64,000 bases of DNA from a virus. Positions 5,469 to 50,227 of the stretch are shown here, in pieces (positions within the stretch are counted from its first letter, which is position 1; each line of letters opens with the position of its first letter). The stretch is taken from UHGV virus genome UHGV-0212524. One strand, given 5' to 3'. The translations under genes were made by a program, and so were the position numbers. Under the pieces are notes generated by a model. The model was not told the origin of the DNA. It searched no databases and saw nothing but the letters and a program-made list of their open reading frames with translations.

Positions 5469-8400
5469 ATGGCTAAAGCGGTAAAGAAAATTCGTTTACA
5501 CGATTTACGTCCATACACCGGGGATATAGGTGAAGGTGTTTTACTTTTTTCCAAGGATGAGAAAGATTATAAGTTACCTGTCCGTGAGATCGTTGCAGAT
5601 ATTGACACCGTACGTAATGCGGTGTCTGATGCACAAACAGCAGCAACACAATCACAAGAAGCTGCAACTCAGGCTACACAAGCAAAGAATTTAGCAGAAA
5701 CAGCAAAACAACAAACTGACACCGTTGCGGCTACAGTTGCTCAACAAGCGCAAACTGTAACCGAAAAAGCAACTGAAGTCGGTACAAAACACACTGAAGT
5801 GTTAGCCGCGAAAACGGCGGTAGATACCCAGGTTGTGTCCGTTAATGAGAAAGCGCAAGCGGTAGCGGCAAGCGAGGCCAACGTCACACAAGCGGTGACT
5901 ACCGTTACGAAGAAAGCAGAAACTGTTGCCACACAAGCCGGTCAAGTCGAACAGTCGCTTACGGCAGTTAACGAAGCTGTCGCGTCGGTAGAGTCGTCAA
6001 AAGCCGCTGTAGAAGCTACAGCAACGCAAGTTACCACAGACAAAGAAACCGCAGAGAATGCGGCAACGCGTTCTGAGGCAGCGGCTAAGCGTGCAGAAGA
6101 AATCGCTGCAAAAGGTAACGTTGATGCAACAACGACCAGTAAAGGTATCGTTAGACTTAATAATACCTTAAGCAGTGACTCTGTTACTGAAGCGGCTACG
6201 CCGTCAACGGTTAAGCAGTTAAATGAAGATTTGCAGTTAAAAGCAAACCGTCACAACCCAACTTTTACCGGTGTGGTAAAAGCACCAACACCTGCTTCGG
6301 ATTCTAACGACACGAGCGTCTCAACGACCGCATGGGTACGGCAAGCGATTGCTGAATTAGTGGACTCTTCACCCGAGACGTTAGATACGTTATCAGAAAT
6401 TGCAGCTGCGTTAGGAAACGATCCTAACTTTGCGACAACGATGACGAACCAACTCGCGGGTAAACAGCCGTTAAGTCCGTTACTGACAGCGATTGCCGCA
6501 GTCACCACCGCTGCAAACAAACTCCCTTACTTTACCGGTAGTAATCAGGTAGGGTTAGCGGATTTCACCTCGACTGCGCGTGATTTGTTAGCGAAAGGGT
6601 CGACGGCAGATATCATTAACTTCCTGGGTTTGAAAACCACTGTTGATAAAGCTGCGGGTGCTATGCAACGCAGTTCTAACGGTGCCGATATTCCAGATAA
6701 AGTCACCTTCGCGAAGAACATCGGGTTGTCAGCAGAGACGTATTTGAAGTTTAATGGGGAAATGGCAGTAGATGCGGATATCAACACCTTCGGCCCAGTC
6801 GAAGCGTTTATGGGTGTCTGGTCTAAAGCCACGTCTACGAATGCAACAATTGCAAAGAACTTCCCGGAAGACGATGCAGTTGGTTACTTAGAGGTATTCA
6901 AAGCAGGTAACTACAGCGGAAGCCAACGTTTTACCATACGTAACGGTAACGTCTATACTCGTCGTTTAACAGGAACCTGGAACGGTACTAACGGCCCTTG
7001 GTCGCCCTGGAGAATGACAACTACCGCGAACCGTCCGCTCTCCACCACTATTGACCTTAACACTTTAGGTGGTGTTGAACACATGGGTCAGTGGCGTAAC
7101 TCCAGTTCTTCTCTTGCGACGTTCGATCGTCATTATCCCGAAGAAGGTGGTAATGCTCAAGGTGTATTAGAAGTAATGGAAGGTGGTCTCTACGGACGTA
7201 TGCAACGTTACACCACTCGTCGTGGTACGATGTATGTCCGTGGGTTGACTGCGACTTGGGATGCGTCTAATCCACAGTGGGAAGATTGGATTCAAGTTGG
7301 GTATCAGGTAGACGGTGCCTACTATAAGGGTAGCTTTAATGACTTAACTAAACCTGGTCGTTTTAGTGTTACCGGTGAGGCTACTGACGGTCCGTTAACA
7401 GACTCTGCTGGCGCAACCTTGTTAGGTGTTTGCGAAGTTACCTTACGCTTAGACGGTTCAGGCGTTGAACAAAATTATACCACATACGGTACAGGCGCAA
7501 CTACGAAAGGTCGCAAGTTCCAACGAATTCGTACAGGAAACGCCTGGAGCGAATGGCGAGAGATTTTCACATCCTATTCACTCCCGTTGGCTTTAGGGAT
7601 CGGTGGGGTTGCTGCCAAGGTCGATCCGTTAGACTGGCAAACCTTCGATTTCGTTCCTGGCCAGATGATAAGTACACCGTTGAATACCATGAAAAACATT
7701 CCTGCGGGAATGGATTGGGGTGTTATTGACGGTAACTTGGTCAGTATTCTCGTAGGGGCGTCAGAGGACACCGGTACTGGTCGGAGTATGTTGGTCTGGC
7801 GCGGTACAGTGTCTACTGCTAACTATCGCTTCTTTGCAGTACGTATCGCTGGCGAGAAGGGTAGCCGTACGATTACGCCACGACAGATGCCTGTGTTGAA
7901 CGCAGCCCACACTTGGGCAGAGAAACAGACCTTTGCAAAAGGGTTAGCAGGTGAGTTAACCGGCAATGCTTCAACCGCCACTAAGCTCCAGACTGCGCGT
8001 AGAATTGGCGGGGTCGCTTTCGACGGCAGCGGCGACGTTAACCTCCCAGGTGTTAACCAACAAGGTAATCAAAACACCACAGGTAACGCCGCGACAGCCA
8101 CTAAACTTCAAACCGCCAGAAATATTAACGGTGTGAAATTCGATGGCTCTGGAGACATCAATATCAACACCTTGGTAGGTCGTGGACGGGTTACCGCTCT
8201 GACCGGGTCGAACAAGGGTACACCTGGTATCCAGATGTACGAAGTTTACAATAACGGTTATCCAACCGCCTATGGTAACTTGCTGCACTTAGGTGGTGCT
8301 AATGCGCTAGGCGAAGGTGAGTTGTTAATTGGTTGGTCGGGCACGAGTGGTGCACACGCACCCGTTTATATTCGTAGTCGACGCGATACGGCTGATGCGC

Positions 8401-9935
8401 CGTGGTCAGATTGGGCACAAGTTTATACTGCCCGTGACAGTATTCCTGGTGTAAATACCACCGGTAATCAGGATACTACTGGCAATGCCGCTACCGCGAC
8501 GAAACTGAAAACCGCTCGCAGAATCGGCGGCGTTACCTTTGACGGTACTGGGGATATCAATTTACCGGGGGTTAACCAGCAAGGCAACCAGAATACGACA
8601 GGTAATGCAGCGACCGCTACTAAGTTACAAACAGCACGTAAGATCGGCGGTGTTAACTTTGACGGTTCGCAAGACATTAGTCTGCCCGGTGTAAACCAGA
8701 CGGGTAATCAGTCGACTACCGGAAACGCAGCCACGGCAACAAAGTTGCAGACAGCGCGTACCATTAACGGTATCGCATTTGACGGTACTAGAAATATATC
8801 GTTAGGGCCTGCCGATATAGGTTGTCCGGCTTCGCCCACTGGTTGGTTGGAGACTGGTAAAGACGGCGGCGCAATAACTACAGCACAGCTAGTGACGTTA
8901 TTGCAAAATAACGGCGCGTTTACCACAAAATCATGGGTTGCTCGCTGTGCATGGGCTTATGCTGCTAGTGCGTCCATACCGAACAGCGAGACGGGTTGTG
9001 GTGTTATTCCGTTAGCTGGGGCTGTTATAGAAGTGATTAGTAACAGCGCAAACAACTACACGATCCGTATAACGACCCCCACAACGACGAGCGTCGGCGG
9101 CGCACTCACTAATGCGGAGTTTATCTACGTAAATAACGGTGATGCTTACTCACCAGGTTGGCGTCGCGCTTACAATACGAAAAACAAGCCAACTGCTGCG
9201 GATGTTGGGGCGTTGCCATTATCTGGCGGTCAATTGAATGGTGTGCTGACGCTGCAAAATGTGAGTCAGCCTCTCAAGACGCCGGGTGGCGGCATTCTGG
9301 CAAATGATGGAAATTTATACATCAATAAGTCAGGATTTGCAGGCTGGATTGATGCGCTGTTTTTGAAGAACAGCGGCGGTACTGTCACTGGCGATTTAAC
9401 GGTTAACGGTAAACTGGTTACGAAGTATGCTGATTTCCGAATCGCTTACGGTAGCTGCGGTTTCATTTTACGTAATGATGGTGCCAATACCTATTTCTTA
9501 GTAACCGACTCCGGACAAGCCGCAACGGGTTCCTGGAACGGACTACGTCCGTTGTATTTTAATAACTCTAACGGTCAAGTAACCTTTGGTCATAACATTT
9601 CTAGCAACGGTAACGGTTCGTTTAACGACGTACAGATTCGTTCTGACCGTCGCAACAAACGTAATCTGGTGAAGCTGGATAAGGCTTTGGATCGGTTAGA
9701 AGCGCTTACCGGCTATCTGTACGAGGTTCAACATCCAGACGACGGTTGGAACACTTCGGTAGGTCTAATTGCTCAAGACGCATTAGAAGCGTTACCTGAA
9801 CTTGTGTCTGAGGATGATGATGCCATTTCAGGCGAAAAACGTTTACGTCTAAACTACAATGGCGTTATTGCGCTGTTAGTAGAGGGTATGAAAGCGTTGC
9901 GTCAAGAGGTTAACGAAATTAAAGGAAGATCCTAA
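5469..9935 (+). CDS. long tail fibre protein with tandem fibre repeats and C-terminal intramolecular chaperone domain (1488 aa)
   Basis: Ala/Thr/Gln-rich region; about six repeats of GNAATATKLQTAR.IGGV.FDGSGD.NLPGVNQQGNQNTT; near the C-terminus SDRRNKRNLVKLD matches the Ser-Asp-x-Arg-x-Lys autocleavage signature of endosialidase-type (peptidase S74) chaperone domains. Confidence 0.85.
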   Translation: MAKAVKKIRLHDLRPYTGDIGEGVLLFSKDEKDYKLPVREIVADIDTVRNAVSDAQTAATQSQEAATQATQAKNLAETAKQQTDTVAATVAQQAQTVTEKATEVGTKHTEVLAAKTAVDTQVVSVNEKAQAVAASEANVTQAVTTVTKKAETVATQAGQVEQSLTAVNEAVASVESSKAAVEATATQVTTDKETAENAATRSEAAAKRAEEIAAKGNVDATTTSKGIVRLNNTLSSDSVTEAATPSTVKQLNEDLQLKANRHNPTFTGVVKAPTPASDSNDTSVSTTAWVRQAIAELVDSSPETLDTLSEIAAALGNDPNFATTMTNQLAGKQPLSPLLTAIAAVTTAANKLPYFTGSNQVGLADFTSTARDLLAKGSTADIINFLGLKTTVDKAAGAMQRSSNGADIPDKVTFAKNIGLSAETYLKFNGEMAVDADINTFGPVEAFMGVWSKATSTNATIAKNFPEDDAVGYLEVFKAGNYSGSQRFTIRNGNVYTRRLTGTWNGTNGPWSPWRMTTTANRPLSTTIDLNTLGGVEHMGQWRNSSSSLATFDRHYPEEGGNAQGVLEVMEGGLYGRMQRYTTRRGTMYVRGLTATWDASNPQWEDWIQVGYQVDGAYYKGSFNDLTKPGRFSVTGEATDGPLTDSAGATLLGVCEVTLRLDGSGVEQNYTTYGTGATTKGRKFQRIRTGNAWSEWREIFTSYSLPLALGIGGVAAKVDPLDWQTFDFVPGQMISTPLNTMKNIPAGMDWGVIDGNLVSILVGASEDTGTGRSMLVWRGTVSTANYRFFAVRIAGEKGSRTITPRQMPVLNAAHTWAEKQTFAKGLAGELTGNASTATKLQTARRIGGVAFDGSGDVNLPGVNQQGNQNTTGNAATATKLQTARNINGVKFDGSGDININTLVGRGRVTALTGSNKGTPGIQMYEVYNNGYPTAYGNLLHLGGANALGEGELLIGWSGTSGAHAPVYIRSRRDTADAPWSDWAQVYTARDSIPGVNTTGNQDTTGNAATATKLKTARRIGGVTFDGTGDINLPGVNQQGNQNTTGNAATATKLQTARKIGGVNFDGSQDISLPGVNQTGNQSTTGNAATATKLQTARTINGIAFDGTRNISLGPADIGCPASPTGWLETGKDGGAITTAQLVTLLQNNGAFTTKSWVARCAWAYAASASIPNSETGCGVIPLAGAVIEVISNSANNYTIRITTPTTTSVGGALTNAEFIYVNNGDAYSPGWRRAYNTKNKPTAADVGALPLSGGQLNGVLTLQNVSQPLKTPGGGILANDGNLYINKSGFAGWIDALFLKNSGGTVTGDLTVNGKLVTKYADFRIAYGSCGFILRNDGANTYFLVTDSGQAATGSWNGLRPLYFNNSNGQVTFGHNISSNGNGSFNDVQIRSDRRNKRNLVKLDKALDRLEALTGYLYEVQHPDDGWNTSVGLIAQDALEALPELVSEDDDAISGEKRLRLNYNGVIALLVEGMKALRQEVNEIKGRS
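7951..8820 (+). repeat. tandem in-frame tail-fibre repeats (about 40 codons each, two blocks)
   Basis: Repeated nucleotide and protein units inside the fibre gene; the same repeats generate look-alike antisense ORFs. Confidence 0.8.
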
Positions 9936-10717
9936 TGGCAGTTGTCGGCGTAGGTGGTTGGATTGGTTCTTCAGCAAAAGCTGAAACTGGTAACGATTGG
10001 ATGTCTGGCGCGATGCGCACACTTGGTGTGCCGGTTCCAGGCTGGATGTCGCAATTGGCGGGAAAATCAAAAGAGGTTCAGTATTCGATCGGGGCTAATC
10101 ACAATTACAATAAAGATACGCTTATTAACTATTTACGTTCTATAGGCTCTAATGCTGTCGTTGTGACCATTACAGGGGATTTAGTGTCTTATAGTAGCGG
10201 GGTTCCTTGTTTAGAATTCCCTAGCAATCTTCCAAATTCGTATATTACACTCATCATCAATCCTGGGGTTACAGTATACGGCAGAGGAGGCAACGGCGGT
10301 TCTAACTCACCAGGCGGTGCAGGTGGAACCGCAATACAGAACGGAATAGGAAACAGACTGCGTATAACCAACCGTGGCGCTATTGCCGGAGGCGGTGGCG
10401 GCGGTGGCGGCGGTAACAGGGGTAGACTAATATTTGGTGGTGGCGGTGGTCGCCCATTCGGTGCTGGTGGGTCTTCCTCACATATGAGTTCCGGTGCAGC
10501 TGCTGGTACTATTTCCGCTCCTGGTAGAGGATCTGTTGGTGAGGGGTCTCTTAGTGCATATACAGGCGGTTCGGGTGGTAATGTCGGTGCTGCTGGAGGA
10601 AGATGTAATACTCATGGTAACGGTACAGAATATAACGGCGGAGCCGCTGGTGCAGCCGTTAGAGGTAATGCGCCAAGATGGGACGCAGTAGGTGCAATAT
10701 ATGGTTCACGTGTTTAA
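9935..10717 (+). CDS. glycine-rich protein, possibly fibre-associated (260 aa)
   Basis: TAATG stop/start overlap with the fibre gene; poly-Gly tracts (GGGGGGGGGNRG); N-terminus paralogous to the next gene. Confidence 0.55.
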   Translation: MAVVGVGGWIGSSAKAETGNDWMSGAMRTLGVPVPGWMSQLAGKSKEVQYSIGANHNYNKDTLINYLRSIGSNAVVVTITGDLVSYSSGVPCLEFPSNLPNSYITLIINPGVTVYGRGGNGGSNSPGGAGGTAIQNGIGNRLRITNRGAIAGGGGGGGGGNRGRLIFGGGGGRPFGAGGSSSHMSSGAAAGTISAPGRGSVGEGSLSAYTGGSGGNVGAAGGRCNTHGNGTEYNGGAAGAAVRGNAPRWDAVGAIYGSRV

Positions 10718-10777
10718 TTTGAAAAAGTATGGGGATACTCACTCCCCTCCTCACACCTTTCAAAAGGATAGGGTATA

Positions 10778-11281
10778 ATGGGGGTAGCATCTGGATGGGT
10801 CGGTTCTTCGGCCAAGAACGAAACGGGCGAACAATGGATGAGTGCTGCTGGTAGTAAATTAGGATTGGGTAGACCTTTTATGATGAGTCAAATGGTGGGC
10901 CGATCTCTTGGCTGTAAAATCGCAACTGCTGCATATAGCGATTCAATGGCTAAATTTTGGGGTGCGGTGGGACCAAACTGGCCGTTAGCGCAGAAAAATA
11001 AAGGGACTATTCAGAATCCTGGTAGCTGCGGCGTAGGCACACTTATTGGTATCCAACTACTATTGATCACATTGGCTGCTGATGCAAAACCAAGTTTAGC
11101 GGTCTATTTACAAGGTGGGAGAGCTTCTAACATCACCGTAAATCTAGGCGGCAACACTTGTACGGTAGCCTATCAGCAGGTTATTAATGGTCAACATTAT
11201 TACTGGACCTCTAACATTAGCACTGCTTTCCAAAACGTGATGAAATCAACCGGCACATTAAGAGATTTGAAGATTAGTTAA
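10778..11281 (+). CDS. hypothetical protein, N-terminal paralog of the glycine-rich protein (167 aa)
   Basis: MGVASGWVGSSAKNETGEQWMSAAG versus MAVVGVGGWIGSSAKAETGNDWMSGA. Confidence 0.55.
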   Translation: MGVASGWVGSSAKNETGEQWMSAAGSKLGLGRPFMMSQMVGRSLGCKIATAAYSDSMAKFWGAVGPNWPLAQKNKGTIQNPGSCGVGTLIGIQLLLITLAADAKPSLAVYLQGGRASNITVNLGGNTCTVAYQQVINGQHYYWTSNISTAFQNVMKSTGTLRDLKIS

Positions 11282-11310
11282 TAATTTTCAAGCGAATGTG
11301 CTTGAAAACG

Positions 11311-11428
11311 TAATCGGGGGGGGGGGTGAAATGTTTTTAGCCACCATTTTATGTCTCCCCAAGCATAGGAGGTAACCATACGTGGAACATTTCACGCCTG
11401 TTTGGGCGTTAACTTAAGTAAAAAACGA
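11311..11428 (+). repeat. degenerate duplicate of the leader and 5-prime end of gene 11521, with a G11 homopolymer
   Basis: About 95 nt near-identical to 11453..11555, including the ggaggtaaccatacgtggaaca start region; the copy encodes only MEHFTPVWALT then a stop; G-run at 11316..11326. Confidence 0.7.
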
Positions 11429-11520
11429 TCACTCGAATCTGCTATAAAAAGCAATCGGGGGGTGGTGAAATGTTTATAGACAACTTTTTATGTCTCTCCA
11501 ATCATAGGAGGTAACCATAC

Positions 11521-12033
11521 GTGGAACAATTCACGCCTGATTTGTCGTTAACTTCACTTAACATGGTTATTTCACTGGTTAACCATGACCTCCAGCTCGA
11601 CCTGCAAGAGAACGAGGTTGAAGTCAGCGACGTAAAGACCAGTAACGAAATGGATCGTGACACCACTGCTGTTGTAAAGATAAAACGTCCTGGTAACAGA
11701 ACGTTACAAATCTATTACAACCGTTTAACCGCAGAGCGGTGGTTAAACCAGCAACCTATTCTGGTAAAGGTTTCCGGTAATGGTTTTACCGCACACGATC
11801 TAATCGACGGAATTAACGCGGCTTGCGGTTGTAATTTACAACCCGACGATCTTACCGACGAATCATTTACCGTAGGGAAAGACGCTGTAACGTTACAGGT
11901 TTCACCCAACTCGTTAGGTTATAAAGGCCAATTCTCCGTTCTGGTTTTCGGTAACGACGAAGAAGCCGCTGTAGTAAAAGACAACGATTTAATCGTTACC
12001 GCAGATAATCGCGTCTTAACCTTTGGTGGTTAA
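11521..12033 (+). CDS. hypothetical protein, paralog family A (170 aa, GTG start)
   Basis: Paralog of the 1394..1957 product; RBS ggagg upstream. Confidence 0.6.
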   Translation: MEQFTPDLSLTSLNMVISLVNHDLQLDLQENEVEVSDVKTSNEMDRDTTAVVKIKRPGNRTLQIYYNRLTAERWLNQQPILVKVSGNGFTAHDLIDGINAACGCNLQPDDLTDESFTVGKDAVTLQVSPNSLGYKGQFSVLVFGNDEEAAVVKDNDLIVTADNRVLTFGG

Positions 12034-12191
12034 TAGTGGCTGAACTGGTAGGAAAGGTACGCATTCGCGAGCTACCGACACTTTCAGAAGACATCACTGG
12101 TGTGGTGGTGTTAGCGTCTATTGCCTGTTAAGATCGTTATTACGCATCTTACAGGGACAACGCTTTCTCAGAACGGAATGAAATAAATATT

Positions 12192-12236
12192 AGGTAGTAG
12201 GGGCTAAGCCCCTACTACCTTTCTTTTTTATTTTTT
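12192..12236 (+). terminator. rho-independent terminator
   Basis: ggtagtaggggc taag cccctactacc followed by tttcttttttattttttct. Confidence 0.75.
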
Positions 12237-12283
12237 CTCAGATATATATTACCTAGGGGAGAGCGAAATTTACATTCGCTCTA
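12237..12283 (+). promoter_or_regulatory. conserved promoter-like motif plus downstream hairpin (copy 1 of 4)
   Basis: ctcagatatatattacctagg followed by the stem gagcgaa / ttcgctc. Confidence 0.5.
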
Positions 12284-12407
12284 TTAGTTATAGCCGAAAG
12301 GAGGATTAGTTCTATCACCCGTATTATCTGTTCTGGTGAATTGGGTGAAGATAAAAAATCGTGTTTGATAAATTAGTTGAAGACTACGTTAAGAAAGAGG
12401 GACAATT

Positions 12408-12851
12408 ATGAAACCAAATACTACTAACGGCATTATGTTACTTTGTGATTCTGAAACGTTAGCAAATCGTATTCGTGGTTTGATGCAAGTACGTTGGCAG
12501 CAAAAGGTTTGCGTGGACTATGCTGCACCGTTTGTTCACGTTACCTGGCTACCAGAAGCTAACGATTTTAAAGAGAGTATAACCACGAGAAGAATTAAAG
12601 ATTGGTTAATGGCAATCATTAACAAACGGATTACCGTTATCAATTTCCAGTTGTTCGGTAGTAAAGAAGAACACGATACCTTAAAACGCTGTTTAAGGGG
12701 ATTGGATCTTGCCTTTTCTGTTCGTGGAAACTGTTACACAGCGTTCTTCATCGGTTCTCTTGAGTTATTTCAGGGAACATTAAACATTCAACTAAAAGAA
12801 GATTACGGGATCGTAAATAAGATTGATTTCGAATTCCCAGCAATGATTTAA
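12408..12851 (+). CDS. hypothetical protein (147 aa)
   Basis: Intact ORF with RBS gagggacaattATG. Confidence 0.55.
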   Translation: MKPNTTNGIMLLCDSETLANRIRGLMQVRWQQKVCVDYAAPFVHVTWLPEANDFKESITTRRIKDWLMAIINKRITVINFQLFGSKEEHDTLKRCLRGLDLAFSVRGNCYTAFFIGSLELFQGTLNIQLKEDYGIVNKIDFEFPAMI

Positions 12852-12862
12852 GGAGGAGTAGC

Positions 12863-13705
12863 ATGTTTCAGTTCGAACTCACCGAAGAAGAAAAGGTTAT
12901 CAACAAGTTTAAAATTTCCCCTATCCCTACTGAGGATCAAATTAAAGAAATCACTGAGCTACAAAACACGTACACGTTTTACTATAAAGTTAAATCAGAA
13001 GCGTTTAACATTTTCTGGGTAGAAGGCGAGGTCGATTTCCCTAACAAGCTCATTAGTGCGGTTATGGATATTTTAGTACGGGCTGTTGAGACGCCTAAAG
13101 ATCCAGAAATTCCGGATCAAATGACTTGTAGGCTAAAAGACAAGCCAACTGCGAAAGACGTCGCTTACTTCACAGACGAGATTCCACTTACCCCCAAACA
13201 GGCAGGTAAAATCGGTTCGATATTATACCTTTTTTACAACGACAAATTCACTTATCTGGTTGAAAACAACGTGCTTAAAGTGAACTATGAAGGTGCTACT
13301 TATCGCGCTTTTTTAAATAACCTATTGAATGACATAGAGAAAGAAAATATTCTGCTATTTACAGTTGAGGATATTAGCGAGGCCGATGCTGCCGAGTTTA
13401 TTCGCGCAGTGAAAGATGAACACGAACACCATCTATTTATAATTTATCAAAGCAAATATCTTGAAGGTAACCTGAATCTCTTGATCCCAAACAAACCATG
13501 GGTTCTTAAAGTTCTGGAACCCCTTGCGCAGAAAATTAAGAGAGATGGTGAATATTTTAAACACGTTCTCAAGAAATACGAAAAAGAAATCAGCGAACGA
13601 CTTTCACGCCACTTTTTTGGACAGCTAGAAGCTCACGTTGGCGAATACGCCCAGCTGTTTGATAGATTTTGTAACGAGATGAGAGAAGTTCGGAATCTTA
13701 AATAA
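12863..13705 (+). CDS. hypothetical protein sharing a roughly 50-aa module with the 17664..18830 product (280 aa)
   Basis: LLFTVEDISEADAAEFIRAVKDEHEHH resembles LISFQGIGKGEADEFMRIVVHEHKEK and LLTITTIGKEDADTFMRDITRWF. Confidence 0.55.
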   Translation: MFQFELTEEEKVINKFKISPIPTEDQIKEITELQNTYTFYYKVKSEAFNIFWVEGEVDFPNKLISAVMDILVRAVETPKDPEIPDQMTCRLKDKPTAKDVAYFTDEIPLTPKQAGKIGSILYLFYNDKFTYLVENNVLKVNYEGATYRAFLNNLLNDIEKENILLFTVEDISEADAAEFIRAVKDEHEHHLFIIYQSKYLEGNLNLLIPNKPWVLKVLEPLAQKIKRDGEYFKHVLKKYEKEISERLSRHFFGQLEAHVGEYAQLFDRFCNEMREVRNLK

Positions 13706-13747
13706 CGAAGGCTTAATTACCCCACTATTTACCTAAAGGAGCATTAA

Positions 13748-14263
13748 ATGTCTGTAACAATCAACATGAATCTTTATACCAAACGTGAACGTCAAATCTT
13801 GGCTAATCAGCCAGGTGTTACTACGATTGACGGTAAACCTATCGACCCATTAAAAGTCGTTGTCGCACACAACTGTTTCGAGAAAGACTGGGACATCATG
13901 TATTTCCGTTGCCGTTCTGTCGCCAACGCACTTACCCAGCTCTCGAATTATCATCCTGGCCCAGTATTAAAAGACTGGGTTTGGTTAGTCCCTAAAACAC
14001 CTTCAGCGATTGAGTATCCGTCGGGTATGGTCTATATTCGTCCTGTCGCTTATCCAGAACGTTTAAAAGAATATCTGGAGGTTATCTGGGACCGACCTCG
14101 TAAAGAGCTGGTGACGATTATCCGTTTACTTCAAATGTGCGATATCCCCAATGTTTCGAATCTGAAACTTACGTCTCGCGATATTAACCAGGCTTACTGG
14201 GAACTAGAGTGGACAGAACCGAAATTCGAAAACACTAACCGTATTTTCTTGCACCGGGGGTAA
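13748..14263 (+). CDS. hypothetical protein (171 aa)
   Basis: Intact ORF preceded by the conserved tttacctaaaggagcattaaa leader. Confidence 0.55.
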   Translation: MSVTINMNLYTKRERQILANQPGVTTIDGKPIDPLKVVVAHNCFEKDWDIMYFRCRSVANALTQLSNYHPGPVLKDWVWLVPKTPSAIEYPSGMVYIRPVAYPERLKEYLEVIWDRPRKELVTIIRLLQMCDIPNVSNLKLTSRDINQAYWELEWTEPKFENTNRIFLHRG

Positions 14264-14265
14264 AA

Positions 14266-14547
14266 ATGTTAGATTGGTTGTTGGGTTTAATTAACTCACG
14301 TCAACAGGAGCTTTATAAAGAAAACACGCGGTTACGGCAGCAGCTTAGTAACAATCGTCAAACCAAACGACAGTTAATTCGGATGGTAAAACAACAGGCG
14401 CGCTGTATACGCGATATCGATTATCAGTATCACCGTCTGAATACCTTAGACCCAACAACAAAAGCTTTAGGCAGTACGATTGGACACGCACGGAAAGTCA
14501 GTCACGACGCGTTAGTTCGAATCGACACAATAGAAGAGAAGCTGTGA
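14266..14547 (+). CDS. hypothetical coiled-coil protein (93 aa)
   Basis: Gln/Arg-rich heptad-like sequence. Confidence 0.5.
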   Translation: MLDWLLGLINSRQQELYKENTRLRQQLSNNRQTKRQLIRMVKQQARCIRDIDYQYHRLNTLDPTTKALGSTIGHARKVSHDALVRIDTIEEKL

Positions 14548-14589
14548 TATAACCCCTCTCAGGAATTCCTGAGAGGGTGGAGTAACAAT

Positions 14590-14964
14590 ATGTCATTACT
14601 GTTATACAAATTCAGATGTTGGCTAGACACCTCGTTTAAAACCTGGGCTTGTGGTGAGAATGTCAGAACGATCGTTAAAGCAACAGACTGGTATACCGAA
14701 ATTGTGGTACTCCCTGACGGTAAACTAATTAATGTTCAGGTACGCAATATCACCGTCAGGATAGGTCGTAAAGGCGGTGCTATTTTTCTTCCCGAACTCT
14801 ATCTGGTTTCTGCATTGGAACTGAAAGCAGGACCGATGTTATTTGGTCGAACAGCGCAACACTATTTCGATACGCTTATTAAACTTAGTAATAGTGTAAA
14901 GAAATTAGGTGAGTCGGTCCATAGATTTATTAAAGAAACTGAACGAACTACGGTGGAGATTTAA
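14590..14964 (+). CDS. hypothetical protein (124 aa)
   Basis: Intact ORF; a GC-rich hairpin (14554..14577) lies upstream. Confidence 0.5.
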   Translation: MSLLLYKFRCWLDTSFKTWACGENVRTIVKATDWYTEIVVLPDGKLINVQVRNITVRIGRKGGAIFLPELYLVSALELKAGPMLFGRTAQHYFDTLIKLSNSVKKLGESVHRFIKETERTTVEI

Positions 14965-14967
14965 AAG

Positions 14968-15276
14968 ATGGAAAGTAAAATCACGAACACATCAGCACCT
15001 GAGAACATTGTCAACTATATTCTCAGTGGCGGATTGTTAGAAGACAATAAAGAAACGTGCGATAAACTCGTTTCTCAACTACTGCCGATTCGTTCAGAAT
15101 ACTGCGAAGTCGTTATCTTGGGTTCTGAGTATTGCGTACGTTCTTACTGTCGTCGTTTCGAAGCCTTACGTGTTCCACGTACGTTAGGTGGCGTGATACT
15201 CTTAGTCTCTAACTTTCACAATGCACACGTTCGTGTTGCAACCTGGATTGCTAACGGTGGTAACAATGGTTTTTAA
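14968..15276 (+). CDS. hypothetical protein (102 aa)
   Basis: Intact ORF. Confidence 0.5.
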   Translation: MESKITNTSAPENIVNYILSGGLLEDNKETCDKLVSQLLPIRSEYCEVVILGSEYCVRSYCRRFEALRVPRTLGGVILLVSNFHNAHVRVATWIANGGNNGF

Positions 15277-15574
15277 ATTGTTAGGTTTCGGAAAATGCAA
15301 AGAGTGTGCAAAGCACGAAGAATATATCAAGTTATTAGAAGAAACAGTTGAAACGCAAAAAGAACTTATCTCTGAATACCGCGCGAAAACCGGTTCAGTG
15401 GAATATCTGACCATCCTTGTTTGTGCTATTGCTGAATTGGGTTGTGAGGGAAAATTACCTAAAGAAGAGATATTAAAATTATTAAAAGAAAAAACAGAGT
15501 TCTACCGTAAAGAAATTGATGATTATAAACGTGAAGTTATAAGAGCGAATTGGGAGGTTATTAATGAAGCGTGA
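15266..15574 (+). CDS. hypothetical coiled-coil protein (about 102 aa from internal ATG)
   Basis: Track ORF begins at 15221 and would overlap the previous gene; the ATG at 15266 gives a short start/stop overlap instead. Confidence 0.45.
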   Translation: MVFKLLGFGKCKECAKHEEYIKLLEETVETQKELISEYRAKTGSVEYLTILVCAIAELGCEGKLPKEEILKLLKEKTEFYRKEIDDYKREVIRANWEVINEA

Positions 15575-15845
15575 AACGGTTGTATTTCGTAGTAATGGTG
15601 ATGTGGTTTTGTATCGTGGTAAGAAACGTATTCGTACGTTAGAATACCGAGAAGCAAAACGTTTTGTTGAAGAGTGTGCATGGTTAATGCATTACGAAGG
15701 GAACTATCGTGCTATCTTAGAAGCACCGCGTTTAGAACGTGCGGTTGCACAGATGGCGATAGGTAATCCTAAGAACTGTTACCTGGCACGTAAGCCAAAA
15801 TACCTACAGCGGCTTTCGTTAGGTAGCTTTATTGCGGGGTTTTAA
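15564..15845 (+). CDS. hypothetical protein (93 aa)
   Basis: Intact ORF with start overlap typical of coupling. Confidence 0.5.
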   Translation: MKRETVVFRSNGDVVLYRGKKRIRTLEYREAKRFVEECAWLMHYEGNYRAILEAPRLERAVAQMAIGNPKNCYLARKPKYLQRLSLGSFIAGF

Positions 15846-15856
15846 TAAAAATAATT

Positions 15857-15897
15857 TCAGATATATATTACCTAGGTGAGAGTTCAGCTACTCTCAC
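15857..15897 (+). promoter_or_regulatory. conserved promoter-like motif plus hairpin (copy 2 of 4)
   Basis: tcagatatatattacctaggtgagagttcagctactctcac; the downstream leader is nearly identical to copy 4. Confidence 0.5.
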
Positions 15898-15927
15898 TTA
15901 ACTAAAACCATTTTAGGAGCATATACC

Positions 15928-16422
15928 ATGAACTTCACTAGACTTGATTACACTAACGAATTAGTTGACAAAGAAAAATACAAATTCACCGTTGACTTGG
16001 GTTACGGATTACTGGACGTAGAAAAAGATGTTCTGCACAAAGAATTCCGTGAGCAGTTCGGTGCTTTGTTCTGCGCAGGTTTCCGCAGAAACACTATTGA
16101 TATCGGTTACAGCGCAACAGCGTATACCGATGAAGAAATGTTTAAGCTGGTAACACAGATTATCGGAACGCGTGGAGCTAATCGTCTTAATTATTCCAAC
16201 GAACTTGTTTCGAAAGAGCATTACAAGTTCACCGTTAGACTACCTGCACACCTCACAGAAGAAGATAAGAACATCCTCTACAAAGCCCTCCAAACCGAAT
16301 TCGGTAAATCGCTCAAAGTAGGGTTCCGTAGTCGTAGTATCGATATCGGAATTAGTGTGGATGTGTGTAGTGACGATGACCTTTACGAATTAGTTTCGGA
16401 AGTTATCGGAAAACATCTCTAA
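15928..16422 (+). CDS. hypothetical protein with internal tandem duplication (164 aa)
   Basis: Two roughly 80-aa halves: LDYTNELVDKEKYKFTV...FRRNTIDIGYS... and LNYSNELVSKEHYKFTV...FRSRSIDIGIS... Confidence 0.6.
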   Translation: MNFTRLDYTNELVDKEKYKFTVDLGYGLLDVEKDVLHKEFREQFGALFCAGFRRNTIDIGYSATAYTDEEMFKLVTQIIGTRGANRLNYSNELVSKEHYKFTVRLPAHLTEEDKNILYKALQTEFGKSLKVGFRSRSIDIGISVDVCSDDDLYELVSEVIGKHL

Positions 16423-16468
16423 ACCTAAATTAACACTTCGACTTGTAAATCTAAAAGGAAAAATAAAA

Positions 16469-17233
16469 ATGAAAACTATCGAATTCAAAAACAGCAACGT
16501 ACGCGAGCAAGGACACATTATCACGAGCTTCCTGAAAAATTCTACACCGCATTTAGCTTATCAATTCTACGGGAACGAACTTAAGATTGCCGGTTTTGAT
16601 GAAGTTGAATTAAATAGGGCAAACGAATTCATTACCGACGTTATTGCCGACGAAGCTACCTGTTTAGTTCTGAACTTTGTTAAACCTGGAGAAGACATAA
16701 AGTCTGCCGAGAAGTTATTTATGGCAGTTTCTGAGAAACTATACGGTATCGTTGAGGTTGATAGCAATAACTATATTGTTTATTTTAAGCATTCTCCAAA
16801 GAAAAACCTCACTAAACTCAGAGAGTTTTTTGAACACAACCCTTCATACTGCGTAGATCTTTACACCCTCGCTTACGACGGAAAAGTACATCCTAACAAC
16901 CTTATTCGTTATGACTATATTCCGCATGTACCGGGAAGATTCGAGGCTACGGAATGGTTCTTATTACACAAAGATCGGATTGCTTATTACAATTACGAAG
17001 AGATCAAAGGAATTGTAGACAAAATCAATGACGACTACTTACAAACTCGCGAAATGTTTTGCGTGACTGTAAGAGCTAACGGATTAACTTCGTTCACTTG
17101 TGACAACCGCGTCGGTCGTCGCGTCTACGATCTGCTAATAAAGGAACTCGACAAACTTACTCCGGTAAAAGTTGGTGTTAACTATTTAAATTGGATAAAG
17201 GCAGGATTAATTGATGAAAACCCTAAATTCTGA
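16469..17233 (+). CDS. hypothetical protein (254 aa)
   Basis: Intact ORF with RBS aaaggaaaaataaaaATG. Confidence 0.55.
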   Translation: MKTIEFKNSNVREQGHIITSFLKNSTPHLAYQFYGNELKIAGFDEVELNRANEFITDVIADEATCLVLNFVKPGEDIKSAEKLFMAVSEKLYGIVEVDSNNYIVYFKHSPKKNLTKLREFFEHNPSYCVDLYTLAYDGKVHPNNLIRYDYIPHVPGRFEATEWFLLHKDRIAYYNYEEIKGIVDKINDDYLQTREMFCVTVRANGLTSFTCDNRVGRRVYDLLIKELDKLTPVKVGVNYLNWIKAGLIDENPKF

Positions 17234-17642
17234 TTTGCGTGATTACATTCGTAAATACCCAGCCAGTATTCCGGTACTGGCTTCACTCTCTTTATCGGGT
17301 ATGGACCTTAATACCTTAACGGTAGAAAAATTCCACGAAGTGGTGAAGTCGTCGTATCAAATTGTTACCGATATGTCAGTGCGGAAACGTGCTGACTACC
17401 CAGACGGCGATTTCGGTACAGAGATGTTCACAGACTACGCAGTTGCGTATCTGATGGGACGTCACTTTATCGATAAACTCAATACGGCTGTAGAAGGAGA
17501 AACAGTCACGGAAATTGTTAATGCTTGGCAGCAACGTATTGTGAGTGACGCTTACTGTCGTCAAGCCTTAAAGAAAATGTCGGCGGTAGCATTAACCAAT
17601 GACCAACGTGCTTTAGAGTTCCTTAAGCACAACTACGAATAA
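17211..17642 (+). CDS. hypothetical protein, paralog of the 18900..19331 product (143 aa)
   Basis: Same length and shared pattern (D.R.YIR..P, EYP.G..G) with the later gene. Confidence 0.55.
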   Translation: MMKTLNSDLRDYIRKYPASIPVLASLSLSGMDLNTLTVEKFHEVVKSSYQIVTDMSVRKRADYPDGDFGTEMFTDYAVAYLMGRHFIDKLNTAVEGETVTEIVNAWQQRIVSDAYCRQALKKMSAVALTNDQRALEFLKHNYE

Positions 17643-17663
17643 TTTACCAAAAGGAAAAGTACC

Positions 17664-18830
17664 ATGTTTAATATTGAGATTACACCGCTCGTTAAAACTG
17701 AAATCCGTCCGGTTCCTGAAGCACAGTTACTCGATCAACTTTATCGTATATTCCTGGATAAAGGTGTGCATTTCCGTGTAGAACAAGTCAACGATGAAAG
17801 CATCGTGTTCTACTGGACTCACAGCAACGATTACCTTTGCGACACTATCGCGGTGGAAATCGGTGAGTTGCTCAACCCGGTAGAAACAACCGAGACAGAG
17901 CAACCGAAAGTCGAAGAGCAGCAGAAAGACGAACCGCACGTCCTCTGGTACGAAGGCGAAAAGATTAAGGATATTAAAGAGGCGTTAGAGACCTTCTATC
18001 CCGATGATTTAGGCATTTACTGGGATAACAGCAAACTCGTCGTTCGATTGAAGAATGACGATCGTAACCTCATGGAAGAAGTACGTTCTGTCGCTGAGCT
18101 GATCGATAACGACACCGTTCGACTTATTTCGTTTCAAGGTATCGGAAAAGGTGAAGCGGACGAATTCATGCGTATAGTTGTTCACGAACACAAGGAGAAA
18201 ATTCGCCAGTCTAATTATGCTGGCGATACTCTAACTGTGCTTGTTGATAATGACCCTGTTGTTATTAATCAACTGAACATCTGTATGCGTAAGTTAACAA
18301 AGAAAATTTTTCTTAACCAACTCGAAGAAGGGGAGCAACCGCGTGAAGAGTCCGATGTGTTGAAAGCCTTTACATACACTGGTCCAGATGCCGAAGCGAT
18401 TAATGACACTTTGACAGCATTCTATTCTACCAAGGTAGAGACCAAACTCGAGGGCGAAAAACTCACCTTTAAATGGAAATGGTGGAACATTGCTTTTGAA
18501 GAAGAAATTCATAGTCTCATTAATGAGATTGTTGACAACCGTCTACGTCTTCTAACAATCACTACTATTGGGAAAGAAGATGCCGATACGTTTATGCGTG
18601 ATATCACTCGTTGGTTTCCTGAGAAAGTCCGTCAGTGGACTTACAAAAACGATACACTTACCATTCTACTCAACTATGAACCCGGTATTATTGGAAAGTT
18701 AAAAACTCATCTGCGTGACTTGTGGTCAGTTCGTTTTCTTAATAATAACGAGCACTTACTCGACGCGTACTTTAGAGAAATATCTTCTGGCGTAGGTTGC
18801 AACTGCCCTAACTGTCAGAAGCATCGCTAA
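17664..18830 (+). CDS. hypothetical protein with internal repeats and C-terminal Cys cluster (388 aa)
   Basis: Repeated module (see 12863..13705); C-terminal GCNCPNCQKHR suggests a small zinc-binding knuckle. Confidence 0.55.
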   Translation: MFNIEITPLVKTEIRPVPEAQLLDQLYRIFLDKGVHFRVEQVNDESIVFYWTHSNDYLCDTIAVEIGELLNPVETTETEQPKVEEQQKDEPHVLWYEGEKIKDIKEALETFYPDDLGIYWDNSKLVVRLKNDDRNLMEEVRSVAELIDNDTVRLISFQGIGKGEADEFMRIVVHEHKEKIRQSNYAGDTLTVLVDNDPVVINQLNICMRKLTKKIFLNQLEEGEQPREESDVLKAFTYTGPDAEAINDTLTAFYSTKVETKLEGEKLTFKWKWWNIAFEEEIHSLINEIVDNRLRLLTITTIGKEDADTFMRDITRWFPEKVRQWTYKNDTLTILLNYEPGIIGKLKTHLRDLWSVRFLNNNEHLLDAYFREISSGVGCNCPNCQKHR

Positions 18831-18847
18831 TTAACTAAAATCGTCCA

Positions 18848-18875
18848 AGGGGTGGTAAACCACCCCTCTATTATT
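18848..18875 (+). terminator. putative terminator hairpin
   Basis: aggggtgg taaa ccacccct followed by ctattattgtattt. Confidence 0.4.
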
Positions 18876-18899
18876 GTATTTACCTAAAGGAGCATTAAA

Positions 18900-19331
18900 A
18901 TGTTTTTCGTATTAAAAGATGATATCCGTAACTACATTCGCAACAACCCGATTGCCCTGGGCGTTTTAGCAGGTTTCTGTCGTCCAAATACTGATTTCGA
19001 TTTAGTTAAGTTAGAAGAATATCAGGAAATTGTGAATACTAACTACATGCACATCTGTAGCTGGGGTAAACGTCCTCGTGAAGAGTATCCCGCAGGTGAA
19101 TTAGGCGACTCTATGCATCGTGACCAGAATCTGATGCACGAATTCGTTGAATACACACTGGAAAATCTTAACTATCCGCTTTTAGTCGACACTGTACCAG
19201 AAATGGTTGACGAGTGGTTAAGTCGTGTTTACAACGACCCTACTGCCAGCACTCTACTGAGTCAGATGTCGCAAACTTCTCGTGATATCGACACCCGGAC
19301 CCTGATGTACCTAGCACACAACGTTCGCTAA
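18900..19331 (+). CDS. hypothetical protein, paralog of the 17211..17642 product (143 aa)
   Basis: Paralogy as above; preceded by the conserved tacctaaaggagcattaaaATG leader. Confidence 0.55.
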   Translation: MFFVLKDDIRNYIRNNPIALGVLAGFCRPNTDFDLVKLEEYQEIVNTNYMHICSWGKRPREEYPAGELGDSMHRDQNLMHEFVEYTLENLNYPLLVDTVPEMVDEWLSRVYNDPTASTLLSQMSQTSRDIDTRTLMYLAHNVR

Positions 19332-19338
19332 CCTCTCT

Positions 19339-19392
19339 CCGCTATAGGCTTCGGTCTATAGCGGAATTAATTTTCTTTCCCTTTTCTTTTTT
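19339..19392 (+). terminator. rho-independent terminator
   Basis: ccgctatag gcttcggt ctatagcgg followed by a T-rich tract. Confidence 0.6.
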
Positions 19393-19497
19393 GTTATTTT
19401 GACGCTACTTTACTTACACCCTACCCGACTATTCCTATGCTGGCTGAGGGATGTAAAACGACCTCTTAAACCTTTTTACTTACTGTGAGTTAACGCG

Positions 19498-20346
19498 ATG
19501 TCTCTTACGTCAAAACAGAAACTGCTAAAACTCATCAACACTGAAAACAATATTAGTCCACCGTTGACTTTCAGTGATGTTGATATCGGAGAACCTACCG
19601 GTACTGGGGTTGATACCCAGGTGGTTCTGACCTCTAAACTCAAAGGCGATGAGTCTACTACTTTAACAGTGACTTACCACCGTCGTAATTTACCTGACTA
19701 CTTAACCGGTGAGTTGGTATTCGGTAACGACAGTGTGGTAACCGCATCAGATTTGCTTAATGCGATCAACGCAAAATACAGCCTAAATATTTTACCCTCG
19801 GATATCGTTGACGCAAAAGTTGAAGGCGAAACCCATCAGCTTACCGCTAACGAGAAATCTTACGAGTGGTGCGGTGTAGTAACGCTTACGCTGCATGATC
19901 CTATTGACCTGACTGAACTTTTACCAGTTACTCAATTAGAGAATCTGGTAGAGTATCCGTCCACTAAGAAAGGTAACGCTGCGGTTTATTCACACCCGAT
20001 TGATTTCACCGCAGAAAAAGATTACCTTGACCCGATTACTATCAACGACACCGTAGACTTGGTAGAGTTAGCCTCTAAACTGGATGGCGTCGTTGATGAG
20101 AAATGGGTAAGTGTACCTAAGAACGCGGCTAACAACCTGTACGGTGCTAAAGTTATTTACGATGGTCCAACCGCAGGTTACGAAGGCGCAAATACGAAGT
20201 TCACTCGTGTGTTGGTGCTAACGCTCAGCCCGCTGTGTTCTAACCTGACCGGTAACCTGTTAATTCACTTTAACGGTACCGATCGTCCGAAGTCGAAGAT
20301 TGAATTAGCACAGACTAATCCGGTCTTACCGGGATTCTTAGATTAA
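19498..20346 (+). CDS. hypothetical protein, distant paralog family A (282 aa)
   Basis: Segment SDLLNAINAKYSLNILPSDI resembles the ...NLQP.DL... segment of family A. Confidence 0.5.
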   Translation: MSLTSKQKLLKLINTENNISPPLTFSDVDIGEPTGTGVDTQVVLTSKLKGDESTTLTVTYHRRNLPDYLTGELVFGNDSVVTASDLLNAINAKYSLNILPSDIVDAKVEGETHQLTANEKSYEWCGVVTLTLHDPIDLTELLPVTQLENLVEYPSTKKGNAAVYSHPIDFTAEKDYLDPITINDTVDLVELASKLDGVVDEKWVSVPKNAANNLYGAKVIYDGPTAGYEGANTKFTRVLVLTLSPLCSNLTGNLLIHFNGTDRPKSKIELAQTNPVLPGFLD

Positions 20347-20359
20347 GAGGATTACAGTA

Positions 20360-20839
20360 ATGACCAATCAAGAAACTATCTTCGACCTTATTAAAAAGGC
20401 TAACCCGGACGCTGAGTTCGACACCACCAAAGTCACGCTGGGCGATCCGGTTGTGACCACCGGTACTTACAATACCGAAATCACAGTTGCGTCAATTAAG
20501 AATCTCGGTTACACTAACGAACAAACGTTCCAGTATAACCGCATTGACGCAGGTTTGTATTTCCTGAACGTATTACCGAAACTGTTGGTAGAATCTGCAA
20601 CGACTACCGCTGACTTACTGCCCGTCATTAACGAGCAGTACAGCCTAACCCTTACAGAAGACGACGTGTGGGTAGAACAGGTTGGTGAGTTACCGTTGGA
20701 CGGTAGCGCAATCGAACACGGTATTTTCTTCCGTCCTGAGTGTCTGACTTGGGTCGGCGGTTTTACGGTGCGTGTTGCACGTAAACCGGCTGTTGAAACA
20801 CCGCCAGCTAAGCCATCACGCGCTAAGAAGAAAAAATAA
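20360..20839 (+). CDS. hypothetical protein, paralog of the 19498..20346 product (159 aa)
   Basis: ADLLPVINEQYSLTLTEDDV parallels the neighbouring gene; Lys-rich C-terminus. Confidence 0.5.
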   Translation: MTNQETIFDLIKKANPDAEFDTTKVTLGDPVVTTGTYNTEITVASIKNLGYTNEQTFQYNRIDAGLYFLNVLPKLLVESATTTADLLPVINEQYSLTLTEDDVWVEQVGELPLDGSAIEHGIFFRPECLTWVGGFTVRVARKPAVETPPAKPSRAKKKK

Positions 20840-20843
20840 TTAC

Positions 20844-20880
20844 AGGGTGGGGGTAATCCCCACCCTCTTTTCTTTTTTGT
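20844..20880 (+). terminator. rho-independent terminator
   Basis: agggtggggg taat ccccaccct followed by cttttcttttttgt. Confidence 0.75.
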
Positions 20881-20902
20881 GTAAAAGAGGAGTTAAACGA
20901 AA

Positions 20903-21493
20903 ATGGCTGAACGTTGGTCTAAAGAAGGTATCATTGAATCCAAAACCGATTTGGAAGGCGGGTACGTCAACGACCCTGACGACTTAGGTGCAGAAACGAA
21001 CCACGGTATCACGGTAACGACTGCACGTGAGTACGGTTACACAGGGAAGATGAAAGACCTTACCCGTGCACAAGCATTCGATATCTACGATCGCGGTTGG
21101 TGGAAGAAGCTCAAACTTGATGAGATTTTCGCTATCTCACCGTTACTCGCGGACCGGATGTTTGATTTTGGTATTAACGCAGGTCGTGCCAACTGCGTGA
21201 AATCGCTACAGCGTATTCTCAACGTGTTGAACAACGAAGGTAAACTCTACGCGGACATCGATACCGACGGCGGTATGGGGCCTAAAACGCTGGGCGCGTT
21301 GAACGCGTACCTGAAATATCGTAAAGATGAAGGGCTAAGCATTTTAATCTTTGCGTTAATCTCGCACCAAGTAACTTACTACACGGAAATCTCCGAAAAA
21401 CGTAAGAGAAACGAGAAATACACCTACGGTTGGTACGGCCGCGTCTTCAGAGAAATGGCAGATTATGCGGTAAAAGCGGGGTTAGTAAAATGA
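20903..21493 (+). CDS. endolysin, glycoside hydrolase family 108-like with peptidoglycan-binding domain (196 aa)
   Basis: N-terminal LEGGYVNDPDDLGAETNHGIT matches the GH108 signature (EGGY.NDP.D.GG.T..GIT); the C-terminal half resembles the PG_binding_3 type usually fused to GH108. Confidence 0.75.
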   Translation: MAERWSKEGIIESKTDLEGGYVNDPDDLGAETNHGITVTTAREYGYTGKMKDLTRAQAFDIYDRGWWKKLKLDEIFAISPLLADRMFDFGINAGRANCVKSLQRILNVLNNEGKLYADIDTDGGMGPKTLGALNAYLKYRKDEGLSILIFALISHQVTYYTEISEKRKRNEKYTYGWYGRVFREMADYAVKAGLVK

Positions 21494-48063: not shown

Positions 48064-48115
48064 TCAGATATATTTTACTTAAGTGAATAGGGGCTGAACT
48101 CGCACTTCAGCCCCT
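48064..48115 (+). promoter_or_regulatory. conserved promoter-like motif plus hairpin (copy 3 of 4)
   Basis: tcagatatattttacttaagtga followed by the stem aggggctgaa / ttcagcccct. Confidence 0.45.
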
Positions 48116-48979: not shown

Positions 48980-49008
48980 GTAACGAACAACCCTAAAGGA
49001 GAGTAAAA

Positions 49009-50160: not shown

Positions 50161-50186
50161 TAAGTGAAAATACACTTTCTCTAACT

Positions 50187-50212: not shown

Positions 50213-50227
50213 AAGAAGGAAATAGAA

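Follow-up and report, generated by a model that had tools for sequence, protein, structure and literature searches.

In SPN3US, the genes gp125-gp137 lie between the tail-associated gene gp124 and an array of head genes designated paralog family B, gp138-154 (PMC5694885). This interval (JN641803 109971-115238) comprises 13 small hypothetical genes, and the equivalent interval of phiEaH2 is gp045-gp057. The virion proteome of SPN3US lists gp123, gp124 and gp138-154, with gp125-137 absent. For jumbo phages that encode their own RNA polymerase, a review states that presumed early operons are preceded in every one of them by a conserved, AT-rich motif around position -10, some 10 nt long, which proved to be the early promoter wherever transcripts were mapped (PMC7598289). 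Early promoters upstream of genes for hypothetical proteins are likewise described for 201phi2-1 in a passage of PMC11512511. Here we describe the corresponding interval of UHGV virus genome UHGV-0212524, a block of genes at positions 12408-19331 of the 64,000-nucleotide stretch that was analysed (hereafter the window). The reading towards which we lean, with a confidence just past the halfway mark, is that the block is an insulated two-operon module of small, probably non-virion proteins, expressed early and embedded among the structural (late) genes of a giant phage related to SPN3US.

The block and its counterparts in SPN3US and phiEaH2 occupy the same position on the same strand, preceded by tail-associated genes and followed by the DUF7941 array and an endolysin. 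The first-pass annotation had counted 14 genes; we counted 13 open reading frames (ORFs) within 12408-19331, all on the plus strand, and among them every ORF that it had named was present with unchanged coordinates and strand. Its location of the block between fibre and lysis modules was likewise borne out: a tail-fibre adhesin of the Gp38-like type is encoded upstream, and downstream there is an endolysin (Glyco_hydro_108). The adhesins and the endolysin sit outside the immediate flanking genes (11521, 19498 and 20360), which encode DUF7941/PHROG 1037 virion head proteins of SPN3US paralog family B. Matches to PF25613 (DUF7941) or PHROG 1037/2935 were confined to these flanks, with none among the 13 block genes. 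The GC content is 0.38-0.43 in the block vs 0.43-0.51 in the flanking structural regions, and a tail assembly chaperone gene is located a short way 3' of the block, at 21601. The boundaries and regulatory elements are as follows.

11521-12033: upstream head-paralog gene, DUF7941 (family match)
12192..12220, no strand assigned: upstream boundary, bidirectional terminator-like hairpin with a perfect 13-bp stem and T-runs on both strands, after gene 11521-12033
12238-12252, plus strand: P1, exact 15-mer TCAGATATATATTAC, leaving a leader of about 125 nt before the first gene
12260-12282, plus strand: P1 leader hairpin with loop AAATTTACA (-10.9 kcal/mol, z -3.7)
15857-15871, plus strand: P2, exact 15-mer TCAGATATATATTAC; a Shine-Dalgarno sequence precedes 15928
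15873-15900, plus strand: P2 leader hairpin with an 11-bp stem (-15.5 kcal/mol, z -5.3)
18848..18867, plus strand: GC-rich hairpin between g17664 and g18900, 8-bp stem and weak T-tail, possibly a partial terminator
19338..19365, plus strand: downstream boundary, terminator-like hairpin with a 12-bp stem
19498-20839: downstream DUF7941 head-paralog genes (family match)

The motif TCAGATATATATTAC occurs exactly at 12238, 15857 and 51648 of the window and with one mismatch at 48064. All four copies are on the plus strand ahead of runs of small plus-strand genes, with a stable hairpin only a few bases 3' of each (z -3.7 to -6.9 vs shuffles); the hairpins, whose loops differ in length, are supported copy by copy. 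P1 was found in all relatives that include its position. The stretch around P2 (15844-15898) is 89-100% identical to intergenic stretches in 44 Seoulvirus- and Erwinia-phage records, far exceeding the identity of about 73% seen for conserved genes in those phages. SPN3US itself contains six exact copies of TATATATTAC (NC_027402 56297, 65416, 94242, 113989, 165690 and 223280), every one of them intergenic, on the plus strand and 60-100 nt 5' of an ATG; the arms of the hairpins that follow vary in sequence from copy to copy, with complementarity kept. One SPN3US copy lies inside the block, directly 5' of gp135, and a phiEaH2 copy precedes gp055-gp056; TATATATTAC plus hairpin ahead of the region of the PHROG 8484 gene is thus common to SPN3US, phiEaH2 and the window. 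The block start is also shared by the three, each having a terminator, a promoter-like motif and a hairpin there. In SPN3US and phiEaH2 the motif at this position is the degenerate TCAGATAGATGTTATC, and the loop of the hairpin behind it, AAATTTAC, matches the loop of the P1 hairpin in the window. Copies of this promoter-plus-hairpin element also stand ahead of clusters of small non-structural genes, both in other parts of the window and in SPN3US, in one case before a gene for a helix-turn-helix (HTH) DNA-binding protein.

By analogy, this multi-copy element is probably an early promoter plus a 5' leader stem-loop. The early units of phiKZ, 201phi2-1 and AR9, as portrayed in passages of two papers (PMC7598289, PMC11512511), resemble the block in having a conserved AT-rich motif, repeated and co-oriented, upstream of small hypothetical genes. 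The sequence of the block motif differs in being specific to its lineage, and for the hairpin directly 3' of it no counterpart was found in the passages on phiKZ-like phages of the same two papers. A full-text literature search for TATATTAC returned no relevant phage paper. From the motif copies and hairpins, taken together with those passages of the jumbo-phage review (PMC7598289) and of the account of 201phi2-1 promoters (PMC11512511), we infer two early operons, 12408-15845 and 15928-19331, each opening with TCAGATATATATTAC and a stable hairpin. In the mechanism that we propose, TCAGATATATATTAC would serve as the early promoter for an injected, virion-packaged multisubunit RNA polymerase, the leader hairpin would stand at the 5' end of the transcript, the terminator-like hairpins at both ends would insulate the block, and the 13 proteins would be made in the first minutes of infection.

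Further observations concern the element itself. Written as ttcagaTATATATTACytaggtga followed by a hairpin, it is near invariant across Seoulvirus, Erskinevirus and the clade of the window phage, and is also present at 10923 of a further sequence, L003. In SPN3US a conserved box, aatcgac(t/c)att, often follows it. In the window, a second run of small plus-strand genes (48064-55559) comes after element copies at 48064-48117 and 51648-51692 and appears to be another early-type cluster.

The genes of the block, with the ratio of nonsynonymous to synonymous substitution rates (dN/dS) given for some of them, are listed below; lengths are in amino acids (aa).

12408..12851, plus strand: g12408, 147 aa, 80-97% identical in relatives, dN/dS 0.16-0.22
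12863..13705, plus strand: g12863, 280 aa, paralog of g17664 with an N-terminal domain and one module of about 135 aa
13748..14263, plus strand: g13748, 171 aa, backbone gene, PHROG 8180 (E 8e-59), dN/dS 0.07-0.09
14266..14547, plus strand: g14266, 93 aa, N-terminal 25 aa or so in common with gp128/phiEaH2 gp047, dN/dS 0.04-0.09
14590..14964, plus strand: g14590, 124 aa, allelic hot spot
14968..15276, plus strand: g14968, 102 aa, backbone gene, PHROG 9649 (E 5e-31), dN/dS 0.06-0.09
15266..15574, plus strand: g15266, about 102 aa, allelic hot spot; the listed ORF starts at 15221
15564..15845, plus strand: g15564, 93 aa, N-terminal 35 aa resembling SPN3US gp133, 91-100% identical in relatives
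15928..16422, plus strand: g15928, 164 aa, internal tandem duplication of about 82 aa
16469..17233, plus strand: g16469, 254 aa, swappable slot
17211..17642, plus strand: g17211, 142-143 aa, PHROG 8484 paralog 1
17664..18830, plus strand: g17664, 388 aa, five tandem units and a C-terminal CxCPxCQK motif
18900..19331, plus strand: g18900, 143 aa, PHROG 8484 paralog 2, dN/dS 0.05-0.09

The ORF listed from 15221 most likely begins at 15266, as calls in relatives from the equivalent start give proteins of 95-104 aa. A backbone of five genes has homologs in Seoulvirus and/or Erskinevirus, corresponding to gp127, gp128 (N-terminus), gp131, gp133 (N-terminus) and a duplicated gp135. Among these, g13748 is 45% identical to SPN3US gp127 and 58% to phiEaH2 gp046, and g14968 is 49% identical to SPN3US gp131; g14266 gave only weak, sub-threshold matches to coiled-coil-type Pfam families. 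No SPN3US or phiEaH2 homolog was detected for the other eight genes, namely g12408 (which also had no family match), g12863, g14590, g15266, g15928, g16469, g17664 and the second gp135-like copy, and compared with both phages the second operon of the window is enlarged by insertions. Conversely, the window lacks counterparts of gp125, gp126, gp129, gp130, gp132, gp134, gp136 and gp137. The backbone and the regulatory frame would be older than the split of Seoulvirus, Erskinevirus and the clade of the window phage. Because gp125-137 are absent from the SPN3US virion proteome, the counterparts of the block are non-virion proteins bracketed by virion proteins, and the products of the block, judged from these homologies, are probably not virion components either.

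Several of the window genes arose by duplication. The two genes at 17211..17642 and 18900..19331, described in the first-pass annotation as paralogs of the same length, align end to end with 30% identity over 141 aa (E 1.6e-24). Their relationship is clear; their equal length holds with the TTG start of 17211, but not with the ATG at 17214, which gives 142 aa, and since relatives start the first gene at this ATG, the equality hinges on the TTG start. Both match PHROG 8484 (g17211, E 5.7e-17; g18900, E 1.8e-17), each over positions 2-126 or so of the 140 in the profile, and BLASTP comparisons of both with SPN3US gp135 and phiEaH2 gp056 gave E values of 4e-11 to 1e-20, g17211 being the copy nearer to these two proteins. 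As gp135 and gp056 are single-copy in SPN3US and phiEaH2, the sequences place the duplication within the clade of the window phage, to which it is specific.

A second pair consists of g12863 and g17664, which are 24% identical over 234 aa (E 7e-11) and also give an offset alignment of residues 110-244 to 239-374 (E 2e-5). Aligned to itself, g17664 shows 32% identity between residues 86-221 and 228-363 (E 2e-20). The module that had been proposed to occur once in g12863 and twice in g17664 does so, but it measures about 135 aa by sequence rather than about 50 aa, and the N-terminal domains of the two proteins are homologous as well. The tandem duplication claimed for g15928 was evident from an ungapped alignment of residues 5-80 with 86-161 (45% identity, E 3e-24).

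Structures were modelled with AlphaFold for two block proteins, g17664 and g15928. The g17664 model (predicted local distance difference test, pLDDT, 74) contains five tandem beta-alpha-beta-beta-alpha units (9-70, 93-148, 152-222, 235-290 and 294-361) joined by disordered linkers, and a C-terminal helical tail with the CxCPxCQK motif. Each module falls into two units in this model, of about 60 aa apiece, and these may be what the shorter module estimate had captured. In the g15928 model (pLDDT 73) there are two beta-beta-alpha-beta-beta-alpha units, one sandwich per half. No catalytic signature was seen in either model. Similar small alpha/beta sandwiches are found in KEOPS Pcc1, the designed LHD29 beta-sheet heterodimers, DCoH/PCD, ACT, HMA and secretin N-domains; identity to such domains is 4-18%, their ligand and catalytic residues are not conserved and the fold is very common, and the likeness is one of resemblance, not membership. 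Since the modelled units are small alpha/beta folds of two layers that expose their sheet edges and lack catalytic motifs, binding would be the most likely activity, and we propose that the proteins might bind host or phage partners stoichiometrically early in infection rather than act as catalysts.

The families of both modelled proteins are narrow. Searching 5.8 billion proteins gave 253 hits for g17664, and among the 120 listed all were at least 66% identical; an exhaustive hidden Markov model (HMM) search of its profile against 1.84 billion cluster representatives recovered four representatives, all of its own family. The g15928 family is restricted to the clade, with 23 hits, the full-length ones being 84-97% identical and 162-164 aa long. 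We considered whether g12408, g15928 and g16469 are built from the unit of g17664 and g12863; hhalign and unit-level HMM comparisons were non-significant and the idea was dropped at the sequence level.

Two block proteins carry cysteine motifs. Read from the translations, a CxxC...Cx6C pattern in g15266 is kept between alleles that are merely 35% identical, and an invariant CxCPxCQK ends g17664 (18800-18830). In these otherwise featureless proteins the motifs may be metal-binding or redox-active.

The relatives of the window phage place it in an undescribed clade. Conserved genes of the window share about 73-75% nucleotide identity with SPN3US (Seoulvirus) and with Erwinia phage pEa_SNUABM_29 and its kin, and the block itself was covered by none of the records of the phage collection searched. 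A contig of 224.8 kb in IMG/VR is a close relative at about 95% identity, and many further relatives are present among public contigs of 220-226 kb, including several from assemblies labelled as isolates of Salmonella enterica, E. coli or Shigella. Given the low identity to SPN3US-like records and the close contigs of 220-226 kb, sequence comparison assigns the window phage to an undescribed clade of SPN3US-like jumbo phages of about 220-226 kb. Members of the clade are present as near-complete contigs in many isolate assemblies of Salmonella enterica, E. coli, Shigella and Enterobacter (P0004, P0010, P0043, P0124 and L007, the last being the 222,169-bp contig of GCA_044674805.1); one protein cluster of the clade has 419 member sequences, and the INPHARED phage collection contained no close match to the clade. 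A carrier state or pseudolysogeny might explain this occurrence in isolate assemblies, as might phage that simply came along with the cultures sequenced.

Variation was compared across eight related loci, seven of which span the whole block and one (L018) only its 3' half, and dN/dS was calculated for every block gene with an ortholog in three relatives. The order of the 13 genes is kept in every relative that spans the block, and values of 0-0.31 for all block genes compared indicate purifying selection; the genes are real. Synonymous divergence (dS) of adjacent genes ranges from 0.01 to more than 1 within a single genome pair (in the comparison with L006, 0.012 for g14590 and 0.57 for g12408), and because of this wide spread between neighbours the block is a recombination mosaic. 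Four positions act as allelic slots. The first holds g12863 in the window and L005 only, an unrelated 175-aa ORF in six relatives and nothing in L010. At the second, g14590 is 43%, 64%, 71% or 100% identical in relatives, with neighbouring genes at 90-100%, and at the third g15266 is either 35-40% or 90% identical. At the fourth, g16469 is found at 92-97% identity in four relatives and at 47% in two others, L010 and L018, while L005 and L009 carry an unrelated ORF of 157 aa in its place. The 175-aa and 157-aa ORFs had looked by eye like relatives of g17664; BLASTP gave E values above 0.2 and they were rejected. Within g17664, unit 2 is the most variable, with a mean pairwise identity of 0.63 vs 0.78-0.87 in the other units. 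In L016 there is one extra 102-aa gene, and the block is intact despite a wholly different upstream tail-fibre module. Three processes would have enlarged the cargo on the older backbone: duplication of whole genes, which gave the gp135-like pair as well as g12863 and g17664, multiplication of domains inside g17664 and g15928, and an exchange of alleles between phages circulating together. The comparison of gene presence and absence called for by the first-pass annotation did reveal such variation, several genes being allele-replaced or present/absent among relatives of about 95% identity. Its term 'accessory' goes too far, as the 13-gene layout is conserved in the relatives examined and the backbone and both promoter positions recur in Seoulvirus and/or Erskinevirus.

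The region upstream of the block is variable too. At 12036-12186, two ORFs of 31 aa and 21 aa represent what is left of the N- and C-terminal parts of a gene that the close relative L005 has in full (206 aa, 4242-4862). In the window phage an internal stretch of about 470 bp of this gene is deleted, just upstream of the boundary terminator (a remnant of about 150 bp vs an intact gene of 621 bp). Farther upstream, the tail-fibre/Gp38-like adhesin module (5469-11281) is swapped in L016 (1-2769) for an Ig_Rha78A_N-containing protein, a DUF4376 protein and a 282-aa ORF, and the Gp38-like adhesins range from 61% to 98% identity among relatives. This replacement of the adhesin module beside the block looks like host-range cassette exchange.

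Function searches agreed with the statement that the block has no recognisable function. Scans with Pfam, PHROGs, NCBIfam and PADLOC assigned no functional family to the block proteins, the PHROGs matched being 'unknown function' families only. The PADLOC defence profiles, with which 10 of the 13 genes were scanned, gave matches of only 13-15 bits. In PDB sequence searches, neither individual proteins nor family profiles (gp127-like and gp135-like) had a match below E 0.06; a Foldseek comparison with viral structures was uninformative, yielding only repeat proteins of low TM from Pithovirus and similar viruses; and Rfam had no match in 11000-21000. Related phages are syntenic over the interval, but their counterparts are likewise unassigned, and the condition named as refuting the first-pass annotation, synteny with assigned structural or replication functions, did not arise; its interpretation is supported in part. 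The earlier suggestion that such blocks are often rich in host-takeover and anti-defence genes received no pointer to either activity from the family libraries, the fold search or the literature.

Weighing these results, we place a generic early, host-directed role first. Several points weigh against it. Late structural genes surround the block on its own strand, which makes read-through or late transcription possible, and the early-promoter role of its motif rests on analogy, the SPN3US motif ahead of the first block half being the degenerate TCAGATAGATGTTATC. Absence from virions is also compatible with assembly chaperones or scaffolds. The AlphaFold models, finally, are of moderate confidence (pLDDT 73-74; predicted template modelling score, pTM, 0.36-0.49) and were built on shallow alignments. 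Anti-defence and assembly-helper roles are accordingly kept as live rivals.

The variable genes (g12863, g14590, g15266, g16469 and unit 2 of g17664) might encode anti-defence proteins that neutralise host immune proteins and were diversified by an arms race, a reading to which we give a minor but real chance. It would account for alleles replaced against a background of 90-100% identity and for the confinement of g17664 variability to one folded unit, and the inferred early expression and small non-enzymatic folds fit it. However, recombination among co-circulating phages gives the same mosaic without an arms race, dN/dS of 0.1-0.3 shows no whole-gene sign of positive selection, and no similarity to characterised families emerged from Pfam, NCBIfam, PHROGs or PDB. 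In addition, nucleus-forming jumbo phages physically shield their DNA from DNA-targeting defences.

We regard as rather improbable that the block encodes non-virion morphogenesis helpers, that is chaperones, scaffolds or assembly factors for the adjacent fibre and head-paralog proteins, with middle or late expression. The setting is suggestive, between the Gp38-like adhesin genes and the DUF7941 head paralogs on the same strand and close to the tail assembly chaperone gene; chaperones are equally expected to be missing from virions, and small alpha/beta-sandwich repeats with exposed sheet edges would suit scaffolding. Yet terminator-like hairpins separate the block from both structural neighbours, its GC content is below that of structural genes, the promoter-plus-hairpin element also serves non-structural clusters including the one with the HTH gene, and in L016 the tail-fibre module is entirely replaced with the block unchanged.

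A more specific version of the early host-directed role, which we offer as speculative and unlikely as it stands, is that the g17664/g12863 family, and perhaps g15928, are lineage-specific modular early effectors, acting as multivalent binders of host proteins by edge pairing. Under that proposal, specificity would be set by the swappable slots and by unit 2 of g17664, both diversified through conflict with the immunity of the host. Delivery would depend on the cassette of promoter and 5' hairpin, near invariant in three lineages of nucleus-forming jumbo phages, which could be a distinct recognition signal for the virion RNA polymerase or an mRNA-stabilising signal.

Recent acquisition of the block as a mobile island or moron cassette not integral to the genome is very unlikely: the low GC content relative to the flanks, the orphan status of most block genes and the deletion scar directly upstream (12036-12186) would suit it, but Seoulvirus and/or Erskinevirus have five backbone genes and both promoter elements in common with it, at a shared position, the gene order is kept among the block-spanning relatives, and no integrase, transposase or flanking repeats were seen in the ORF list and Pfam scan.

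The block is thus an ordinary case of the early hypothetical-gene clusters of jumbo phages, a known kind, and adds no new principle. Small early genes of unknown function are, all the same, the least understood part of jumbo-phage genomes, and here a backbone of gp127, gp128, gp131, gp133 and gp135 homologs has been separated from clade-specific, recombining cargo. The frame of terminator, P1 with hairpin, P2 with hairpin and terminator, conserved in Seoulvirus, Erskinevirus and this clade, offers a direct means of predicting early operons in such phages, and its promoter-plus-hairpin elements are the most reusable result. Since the clade is represented in many isolate-labelled public contigs, alleles of the block could be correlated with host genotype.

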